Shown in pieces: positions 16,914-18,652 of a DNA stretch of 24,885 bases (positions are counted from its first letter, which is position 1; each line of letters starts with the position of its first letter). The stretch is from UHGV virus genome UHGV-1599822; one strand, 5' to 3'. The stretch comes from a virus. Both the position numbers and the translations under genes were made by a program. The notes under the pieces were generated by a model. It did no database searches. It was not told the DNA's origin and was given only the letters and a program-made list of their open reading frames with translations.

Positions 16914-17843
16914 ATGTCAGGATATAATTCTCAGAATCCAAAGGAACTCAAAGATGTCATTCTAAGACGTTTAGGGGCTCCGATTATTAATGTTGAGTTA
17001 ACACCCGATCAAATCTACGATTGCATCCAGCGTGCCCTAGAATTATACGGTGAATACCATTTTGATGGACTTAACAAAGGTTTTCATGTATTTTATGTAG
17101 GAGATGACGAAGAAAAATATAAAACCGGAGTCTTCGATTTAAGAGGTTCAAATGTATTCGCAGTAACTCGCATTTTGCGAACAAATATTGGATCAATAAC
17201 GTCAATGGACGGAAACGCTACATATCCATGGTTTACTGATTTTCTTTTAGGAATGGCTGGTATTAATGGCGGTATGGGGACTTCTTGTAATAGATTTTAT
17301 GGACCAAATGCCTTTGGAGCTGATTTAGGATATTTTACCCAGCTTACCAGTTACATGGGAATGATGCAAGATATGCTCTCTCCTATTCCAGACTTTTGGT
17401 TTAATTCAGCAAATGAACAGCTCAAAGTCATGGGAAACTTCCAAAAATATGATTTAATTATCGTAGAAAGCTGGACTAAATCATACATTGATACTAATAA
17501 AATGGTTGGAAATACAGTAGGATATGGAACAGTCGGTCCACAAGATAACTGGTCATTATCTGAACGATATAATAACCCAGACCACAATTTAGTTGGTCGT
17601 GTTGTTGGTCAAGACCCAAATGTTAAGCAAGGTGCTTACAATAATCGTTGGGTGAAAGACTATGCTACTGCTTTAGCTAAAGAATTGAATGGTCAAATTT
17701 TAGCACGCCATCAAGGTATGATGCTTCCTGGCGGTGTTACGATTGATGGACAACGCTTAATAGAAGAAGCTCGATTAGAAAAAGAAGCATTACGTGAAGA
17801 ATTATACTTACTTGACCCTCCAGTGGGAGTGTTAGTTGGATGA
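16914..17843 (+). CDS. 13: Neck protein gp13
   Basis: 309 aa, matching T4 gp13 in length and position after wac; SD AAAGGA upstream. Confidence 0.88.
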
Positions 17844-18652
17844 ATTATACTAAAATTTACGACTCTCTTATAGAAAGATCTCTTAAAAGAGGTCTTAATA
17901 AGAAAAAATTAGATTATTATACAGAATCACACCATATTGTCCCAAAATCCATGGGAGGAGATGATTCTAGAGAAAACAAGGTTTTACTGACAGCAAGAGA
18001 ACACTATTTTGCACATGAGCTTCTTTTTAAAATACACCGAAATTCTGAAATGGCTTATGCCTTAATAAAATTCTCCAAGGGTACAAAAGAGCAGAGAATT
18101 GTAAGTAAAGATTACGGATGGATTAAAGAGGAAACATCTAAAATTAGATCAGAAACCATTAAAAAGTTTTGGGCGAATCTATCACCAAATTTAAAACAGG
18201 AACGAATTAAAAAAGCCGGAAAAGGCATTAAAAAAACTAAATCTTTATGGACAGATGAAAAGAGAAAAGAAGTTAATGCAAATATTCGAAAAGCTTCAGT
18301 GAAATATTTGGAATCGTTATCAGAAAACGAAATGTTAGAATATAAAGAAAGATGTTCTAAACAGATGAAAGATTTTTGGTCTGAGCTTAAAAGTGACCCC
18401 CAAAAATACGAAAAGTATTTAAATAAACTATCTAAGGGTCTTGCAAAAGTCGAAAAGAGAAATTGCCCGCATTGCGGAATTATATGTGATGTAGGAAATT
18501 ATGGAAAATACCACGGCGATAAATGCAAAGTTATCACGGGTGTATCTCATAGCAGAGAAAAATTAAAATGCCCGCACTGCTCTAAAATCATGGATAAGTC
18601 TCACGCTAAAAGATACCATTTTGACAATTGCAAATTTAAGAAGGTCGAATAA
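17840..18652 (+). CDS. Freestanding HNH-family homing endonuclease with tandem C-terminal CCHC zinc-finger motifs
   Basis: 270-aa ORF. N-terminal HNH motif [31 protein letters not shown] (nt ~17924-18019). Lys-rich middle region. Two C-terminal repeats of CPHC-x12-H-x3-C (aa 209-229 and 244-264). ATG overlaps the gene 13 stop (ATGA); stop lies 1 nt before the gene 14 ATG. Confidence 0.85.
17840..18652 (+). mobile_element. Homing-endonuclease gene cassette inserted between neck genes 13 and 14
   Basis: Interrupts otherwise T4-collinear synteny. A-rich, low-GC composition (about 28-30% in two hand-counted 60-nt stretches). HNH catalytic motif typical of phage freestanding homing endonucleases (T4 Mob and I-TevIII-like). 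Confidence 0.6.

Follow-up and report, generated by a model that had tools for sequence, protein, structure and literature searches.

What occupies the boundary between the neck genes 13 and 14 in the virus genome UHGV-1599822, where phage T4 has no gene at all, and does it have the features of an element that homes to that boundary? We analysed one strand of a 24,885-nucleotide (nt) stretch of this genome (the window), in which an open reading frame (ORF) of 270 amino acids lies between the two genes. An earlier note, made from the sequence alone, had read this ORF as a freestanding HNH homing endonuclease gene (HEG), a reading now supported by profile matches, by the distribution of the gene and by the low divergence of the cassette that carries it. 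Each check at sequence level that the note had proposed favoured this reading. [quoted passage not shown] We consider it probable that the ORF is a freestanding T-even HEG of the Mob kind that homes at the 13/14 junction in the way proposed below. The gene and its neighbours are positioned as follows.

16914-17843, + strand: gene 13, encoding the gp13 neck protein, a head-tail adaptor (PHROG 211 'head-tail adaptor Ad2', E = 2.8e-43; 93.5% nt identity to T4)
17840-18652, + strand: the freestanding HNH HEG, 270 amino acids (ORF list, profile matches)
18640-18656, + strand: gene 14 translation start region, consisting of GAAGG followed by TAA (the HEG stop), T and ATG
18654-19424, + strand: gene 14, encoding the gp14 neck protein, head closure (PHROG 679, E = 2.2e-115; 95.3% nt identity to T4)

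The HEG ATG (17840-17842) overlaps the gene 13 TGA (17841-17843) as ATGA, this TGA coming from the insert, and one T separates the HEG TAA (18650-18652) from the gene 14 ATG at 18654. The 270-codon reading frame, the ATGA overlap and the 1-nt gap to gene 14 described earlier were therefore exact to the base. GAAGG, a Shine-Dalgarno-like sequence for gene 14, was found at 18640-18644, within the 3´ end of the HEG, where a gene 14 ribosome-binding site had been claimed. In T4, gene 13 (last position 94553) and gene 14 (first position 94555) are 1 nt apart with no gene between them, in agreement with the earlier note; a review of T4 mobile elements likewise lists none there, T4 having none (PMC2988022). 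By position, the HEG TAA is the old gene 13 stop. Genomes that have the HEG and genomes that lack it share the sequence TAATATG, and the stop-T-ATG arrangement found at the empty site is recreated in front of gene 14. There is no room for an intron housing the HEG, which is joined to its neighbours on both sides (ATGA and TAA-T-ATG; no Rfam scan was made).

A megablast search with the junction region found the flanks in 506 phage records and the insert in 47; the T4 empty site (GGT TAA T ATG) was found uninterrupted in 457, with RefSeq/GenBank duplicates included in the carrier and empty-site counts on both sides. Carriers make up 47 of ~504 Tequatrovirus records (~9%), always with the HEG at the gene 13/14 junction. 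By tblastn, 47 records encode a protein at least 95% identical, all at 13/14, and the next relatives are below 60%. Among the carriers are T6, YUEEL01, CrRp10, fPS-2 and BYEP01, the BYEP01 protein being identical to that of the window. At all 11 loci sampled from other T4-like genera, genes 13 and 14 are adjacent with no insert. Alignment of the 13-14 region across T4-like genomes, proposed by the earlier note, thus shows an ORF that is far from universal.

IMG/VR viral contigs include very few T-even phages, and GenBank phage records were therefore used for the population comparison, which was carried out at base level for 12 carrier and 13 non-carrier loci (25 in all) and by BLAST counts for the rest. 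Junction alignment of these loci defined the following features.

17823-18649, + strand: the whole mobile cassette, 827 nt, made up of the recoded gene 13 end and the HEG codons before the stop (alignment of the 12 carrier and 13 non-carrier loci)
17823-17840, + strand: the recoded last six gene 13 codons, GTGGGAGTGTTAGTTGGA (VGVLVG) for TTTGGAATTTT[G/T]GTAGGT (FGI[L/F]VG)
17825-17829, + strand: GGGAG, a Shine-Dalgarno-like sequence 10 nt upstream of the HEG ATG (read from the sequence)

The cassette replaces 18 nt, TTTGGAATTTT[G/T]GTAGGT, of genomes lacking the HEG. Carriers read GTGGGAGTGTTAGTTGGA-TGA at the left junction and non-carriers TTTGGAATTTT[G/T]GTAGGT-TAA; at the right edge, TAATATG and everything downstream are common to both classes. 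Seven differences between the classes are fixed across the 25 loci, at -18, -16, -12, -10, -7, -4 and -1 from the gene 13 end, and no column elsewhere within ±2.5 kb shows an allele-frequency difference of 0.6 or more. At the background divergence, at least seven differences in 18 nt would be expected with P ~1e-5. Linkage across the database was tested by searches with artificial chimeric junctions. The carrier-type patch was present in 47 of 47 carrier records, with a best match of 91.3% to a 'T4 patch + HEG' chimera, and in no record lacking the HEG (best full-length match 91.2%). A 44-nt megablast of the patch had returned 8 exact carriers only; it was too strict and was replaced by the chimeric-junction searches. 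The fixed differences and the database-wide linkage define the mobile unit as 17823-18649 replacing 18 nt, such that a highly conserved empty site stands against carriers with the insertion plus seven fixed substitutions in the adjoining 18 nt. The earlier description of an insertion precisely between genes 13 and 14 is correct for the position, but the insert also swaps the last 18 nt of gene 13 (17823-17840).

The recoded patch changes the gp13 end from PPFGI[L/F]VG to PPVGVLVG and supplies both the HEG ATG and the new TGA stop for gene 13. It also creates GGGAG, which the T4-type sequence lacks and which we infer may act as the HEG ribosome-binding site. Just left of the cassette, the proline codon at 17820-17822 is CCG in 5 of the 12 carriers and CCA in all 13 non-carriers; CCG may be a donor remnant partly eroded by recombination, or a new mutation.

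Within the 12 carriers, the cassette is 99.2% identical (minimum 98.3%), compared with 95.4% for gene 13 and 97.1% for gene 14. These flank values are the same as those between carriers and non-carriers (95.3% for gene 13, 96.7% for gene 14), and for 5 of the 12 carriers the nearest flank neighbour is a non-carrier, as for T6 with Yersinia phage PST. Cassette diversity is 0.8%, four- to six-fold below that of the flanks of the same genomes (2.9-4.6%). An insert less diverged than its flanks, in carriers interspersed with non-carriers, argues for recent lateral spread and is the pattern expected, at the level of sequence, of a cassette recently moved into diverged backgrounds. Codon changes among the intact copies number 12 synonymous and 10 non-synonymous, and no residue invariant in the family is affected. 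We also noted a site of frameshift in relatives.

18230-18236, + strand: A7 run, the site of a 1-nt deletion in relatives (carrier comparison)

In SHFML-26 (L056), F1 (L060) and FN the deletion breaks the gene into two ORFs, annotated separately; it may reflect genuine decay or else a sequencing error in the homopolymer.

Given this distribution, we examined the protein itself, for which an alignment and profile of 46 family sequences were used and the T4 Mob proteins and RB3 I-TevIII were taken from annotated records. The parts of the gene that encode its recognisable regions are as follows.

17840-18172, + strand: N-terminal Mob-type HNH nuclease domain, residues 1-111 (blastp, tblastn, hhalign)
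17930-18016, + strand: HNH motif, residues 31-59 (HH...N...H...H)
18173-18448, + strand: lysine-rich helical linker, ~residues 112-203 (predicted helices)
18464-18526, + strand: zinc finger 1, residues 209-229, CPHC-X12-H-X3-C (motif; fits the I-TevIII consensus CX2CX12-13HX3C)
18569-18631, + strand: zinc finger 2, residues 244-264, CPHC-X12-H-X3-C (C244, C247, H260 and C264 invariant in the family)

The claim of a canonical HNH endonuclease is upheld by the profile searches. The protein matches Pfam HNH_4 with 25.6 bits (E = 1.2e-5), over the curated cut-off of 22 bits, and matches PHROG 655 'homing endonuclease' over its whole length (E = 1.8e-52); a match to PF01844 (17.9 bits) is under its cut-off, and no NCBIfam family was matched by the 270-amino-acid protein. 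The HNH motif quoted in the earlier note was located at residues 31-59. In the 46-sequence alignment the family-invariant residues are H31, H32, N46, H55, H59, C244, C247, H260 and C264, and all are kept here.

Comparison with the Mob proteins and I-TevIII, also proposed earlier, divided the protein in two, the N-terminus matching Mob and the C-terminus I-TevIII. Over residues 1-111, blastp identity is 46% to MobD, 44% to RB3 MobE, 42% to T4 MobE and 37% to MobC; for MobB it is 35% over residues 1-210, and T4 mobB is 49.5% identical over residues 1-111 by tblastn. The family profile aligned with MobD by hhalign with a probability of 99.95% (E = 1.3e-37). At the other end, residues 192-267 are 33% identical to the I-TevIII C-terminus over ~76 residues, and hhalign matched the profile to I-TevIII residues 204-265 with a probability of 97.1% (E = 5.7e-11). 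The zinc fingers of I-TevIII, with the consensus CX2CX12-13HX3C, bind zinc and are required for binding to DNA, and the interface of the I-TevIII dimer has been mapped beside them (PMC1865063). In a confident AlphaFold model (predicted local distance difference test score 90.6), the core is beta-beta-alpha, residues 90-203 form five long helices and the two fingers are small hairpin-helix units; the run of helices is predicted to begin at residue 90, inside the nuclease domain. The helical linker probably forms an extended, NUMOD3-type region for DNA binding. Among solved structures, a sequence search gave marginal HNH-motif matches only (E ≥ 0.08); Foldseek found no significant match in the PDB, and the structure searches gave only weak HNH and DNA-binding-repeat matches.

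The I-TevIII nuclease domain belongs to HNH_3 (PF13392) and is I-HmuI-like, whereas the 270-amino-acid protein matches HNH_4/HNH instead, and NUMOD1 modules, of which MobB has two and RB3 MobE one, are absent from it. Since the nuclease domains are of different type and zinc fingers stand in place of NUMOD1, the architecture is a hybrid: as far as sequence comparison can tell, the protein is a Mob-type nuclease joined to an I-TevIII-type DNA-binding end. NUMOD1 is no strict criterion of the Mob group, because MobD is also without it. As a separate observation, the region of zinc finger 2 (the last ~30 residues, CPHC...RYHFDNCK) is 55-71% identical in more than 20 unrelated viral contigs of IMG/VR (L029-L051), which match the finger only and not the remainder of the protein; this suggests that zinc finger 2 may be a module widely shuffled among phage endonucleases.

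To our knowledge, MobE is the only Mob protein with experimental support (a strand-specific nick in T2 nrdB), and we know of no target for most Mob-type enzymes, MobB, MobC and MobD included. MobD, MobE and MobB resemble the present protein in the nuclease domain, from an MNYxKIY... start through ...HHI[IV]P...GG.D...N.V.LT..EH..AH., and their genes are likewise freestanding, lodged between conserved genes and sporadic in relatives. They differ in occupying other loci, the T4 13/14 junction being unoccupied, and in that the DNA-binding end of MobB and RB3 MobE is made of NUMOD1 where the 270-amino-acid protein has two CCHC zinc fingers. I-TevIII, from the nrdB group I intron of phage RB3, makes a double-strand break with 2-nt 3´ extensions. 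It is of nearly the same length (269 versus 270 amino acids) and has fingers at 211/242, compared with 209/244 here, both tandem CX2CX12-13HX3C; I-TevIII is intron-encoded, whereas the gene 13/14 HEG is freestanding. The proteins of T6 and about 45 other Tequatrovirus records, 98.5-100% identical and at the identical position, show no difference of substance.

Related genes were also found at the same junction in other lineages. A large protein search gave three full-length metagenome relatives (P0002, P0003 and P0004), 52-57% identical and of the same architecture, each directly upstream of a gene 14 homologue. The four orthologues are mutually 51-61% identical, and the adjacent gp14 proteins 74-79%. 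Contig L075 has the ATGA overlap with gene 13 and the 1-nt spacer to gene 14 seen in the window, whereas in L074 and L076 the HEG follows an intact gene 13 stop after a 9-nt spacer, with no overlap. The L076 flanks are 90-95% identical to Citrobacter phage CF1-like genomes, which are without the insert, and beside the insertion 4 of the last 10 gene 13 nt of L076 are substituted (P ~0.009). Judged by these orthologues, which share one insertion point, the HEG lineage is an apparently long-standing associate of the 13/14 junction, which argues that the enzyme recognises the junction or sequence very near it. In L074 (logan:SRR33991139_568291) we also noted a different ORF of 198 amino acids at 1621-2217, with HNH, NUMOD3 and a single zinc finger, between genes 14 and 15; this contig thus has two endonuclease genes in consecutive neck-gene gaps.

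With respect to expression, the T4 late-promoter consensus TATAAATA does not occur on the + strand between 10506 and 22599, and the nearest upstream match on that strand is 7.3 kb from the HEG. A late promoter of its own was accordingly rejected for the HEG, and sigma-70-type and terminator scans around the gene gave matches at chance level. With no promoter of its own found, the HEG is probably read from a long late transcript. T4 mobE is similar in this respect, being promoterless and reliant on upstream transcription (PMC2790892). We also considered a hairpin that would hide the HEG ribosome-binding site, as happens in some T4 endonuclease genes. A 4-bp CUCC/GGAG stem is predicted, but folding is no better than that of shuffled sequences (z = 0.12), and the candidate was dropped; folding of the gene 14 start region is likewise no better than that of shuffles.

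These observations can be assembled into a mechanism. Transcription of the HEG would come from read-through of the late neck/baseplate message, and its translation would be coupled to that of gene 13 at the ATGA, aided by GGGAG. In a mixed infection, the enzyme would bind the intact 13/14 junction of a relative lacking the HEG, through its zinc fingers and helical linker, and would leave a nick or double-strand break, likely within or close to the final ~18 bp of gene 13. The analogy is with I-TevIII, whose cuts fall 14/16 bp upstream of its own insertion point (PMC1865063); MobE, for comparison, nicks (PMC2790892). Recombinational repair from a carrier genome would then copy the cassette in. 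Carrier DNA would be immune, since the insertion splits the site and seven adjoining positions are recoded, and precise lodging between two essential, translationally linked genes would hinder clean loss of the element.

Several points weigh against this scheme. Cleavage by the enzyme and its target site are purely inferred, and a target at the junction is not guaranteed, given that the cuts made by SegF, SegG and MobE often lie tens to hundreds of bp away from the genes that encode them (PMC2790892). At 10 nt from the ATG, GGGAG is a little distant for a good ribosome-binding site, and the stability of the local RNA folds does not exceed that of shuffled sequences. L074 and L076 keep the FGIL-type gene 13 end, so the specific recoding is not universal. 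The linkage of the patch could be hitch-hiking rather than a mark of immunity, because seven mismatches in 18 nt beside a large heterology are inseparable by homologous recombination. Finally, the frameshifted copies in SHFML-26 and F1/FN show that functional loss is possible.

A more specific form of the junction-homing proposal is that the gene is an old 13/14-junction specialist whose product dimerises to make a double-strand break in the last ~18 bp of gene 13, with the patch serving as immunity, ribosome-binding site and start codon all at once. This form would draw together an insertion point kept across T4-like genera down to ~50% identity and the union of a Mob nuclease, known only as a nickase, with the zinc-finger/dimerisation module of I-TevIII. 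We put it forward tentatively, thinking it possible but with the balance tilted against it. If true, the protein would be a compact natural example of the reshuffling of catalytic and DNA-binding modules among phage homing enzymes, and its target would be predictable to ~30 bp.

Of the explanations that depart from homing at the junction, the one that survives best is a Mob-type endonuclease that cuts elsewhere, in gene 13, gene 14 or further away, or that acts mainly by damaging competitors (marker exclusion or interference). MobE nicks nrdB ~120 nt into the neighbouring gene, and co-conversion from T4 endonuclease cuts reaches up to 2 kb (PMC2790892); the FGIL gene 13 ends of L074 and L076 are also 'sensitive-looking', as this explanation would allow. 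A distant target must, however, differ in carriers for self-immunity, and beyond the 18 nt no site within ±2.5 kb is skewed to the 0.6 threshold. The recombination endpoints lie directly at both cassette edges, and four diverged orthologues all occupy exactly the same insertion point. We therefore rate a distant target as unlikely, though worth keeping in view.

Considerably less probable is a relic that is no longer mobile, descended from a single ancestral insertion by vertical inheritance and repeated loss, with a protein that is inactive or drifting. Such a history would accommodate the frameshifted copies in SHFML-26 and F1/FN and the synonymous to non-synonymous ratio of 12:10, which is only mildly purifying, and the association with the locus in several genera could be ancient residence. 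It does not fit a cassette diversity of 0.8% between flanks at 2.9-4.6%, nor carriers interspersed with non-carriers. Loss would have had to be base-perfect in ~457 genomes, each time restoring the T4-type 18 nt, and the invariant catalytic residues and zinc ligands are all intact.

A domesticated HNH protein serving virion assembly or DNA packaging, like the terminase-assisting HNH proteins of HK97-like phages, might be suggested by the position in the late neck/terminase block, with the terminase genes 16/17 two genes downstream, by late expression and by the missing promoter, but we rejected this explanation as very improbable because most relatives are viable phages without the gene (~91% of Tequatrovirus records and 11 of 11 other-genus loci), T4 packaging is fully explained by gp16/gp17, and a Mob nuclease with sequence-reading zinc fingers is the architecture of a homing enzyme.

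Returning to a Mob-kind HEG that homes at the junction, the element is of an ordinary kind for T-even phages; it changes no concept and is not surprising. It is an unusually clean case, with hundreds of natural filled and empty sites, boundaries known to the base and a laboratory phage, T6, among the carriers, in which the candidate target would be narrowed to ~30 bp at the 13/14 junction. For T4-like therapeutic phages, gene conversion around genes 13-14 is to be expected where carriers meet non-carriers.

At the level of annotation the HEG is already known and is not a discovery. The T6 gene (NC_054907 KMB99_gp239) is labelled 'homing endonuclease' in RefSeq, dozens of GenBank records label the gene 'homing endonuclease', 'HNH endonuclease' or 'putative mobile endonuclease', and the mob-like and other HNH genes of T6 were counted in 2010 (PMC2993671). 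Our literature search found no paper that describes this gene or reports on its boundaries, hybrid architecture or activity; a preprint on bacterial NLR proteins that names T6 and HNH was irrelevant to this gene. Two annotation slips were noted along the way: in the T6 record AP018814.1 the neck-gene match is labelled 'aerobic NDP reductase large subunit', and a 214-amino-acid HNH/NUMOD3 protein of phage ESCO10 (P0010) is misnamed 'baseplate hub subunit and tail lysozyme'.

Two statements of the earlier note did not survive. The first was a contrast in G+C content, 28-30% at the insert versus about 53% in a gp18 stretch. The ORF has 32.0%, gene 14 has 31.0% and the window as a whole 35.6%; 100-nt windows reach their highest GC (0.50-0.54) at ~5331, 14621 and 16801, none of which falls in gp18. 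With the ORF so close to gene 14 and to the window, base composition does not mark the insert, and we discarded it as a sign of foreign origin. The second was that all other genes are collinear with T4. At 4092-4097 of the window the segC site is empty: T4 80217-80775, comprising the GIY-YIG gene segC and gene 5.3 (558 nt), is absent, and gene 5.1 is joined directly to gene 5.4. The window is thus without one T4 homing endonuclease gene and has another that T4 lacks. At ~14664-15263, the 3´ part of gene 12, the short tail fibre gene, has no blastn match to T4 91348-91974. The GC content of the window peaks in the same place (0.42-0.46 in 400-nt windows), and the segment has the look of an exchanged receptor-binding end. 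After it, the wac/gene 13 stretch reaches only 82% identity to T4, compared with 96% in the neighbouring blocks.

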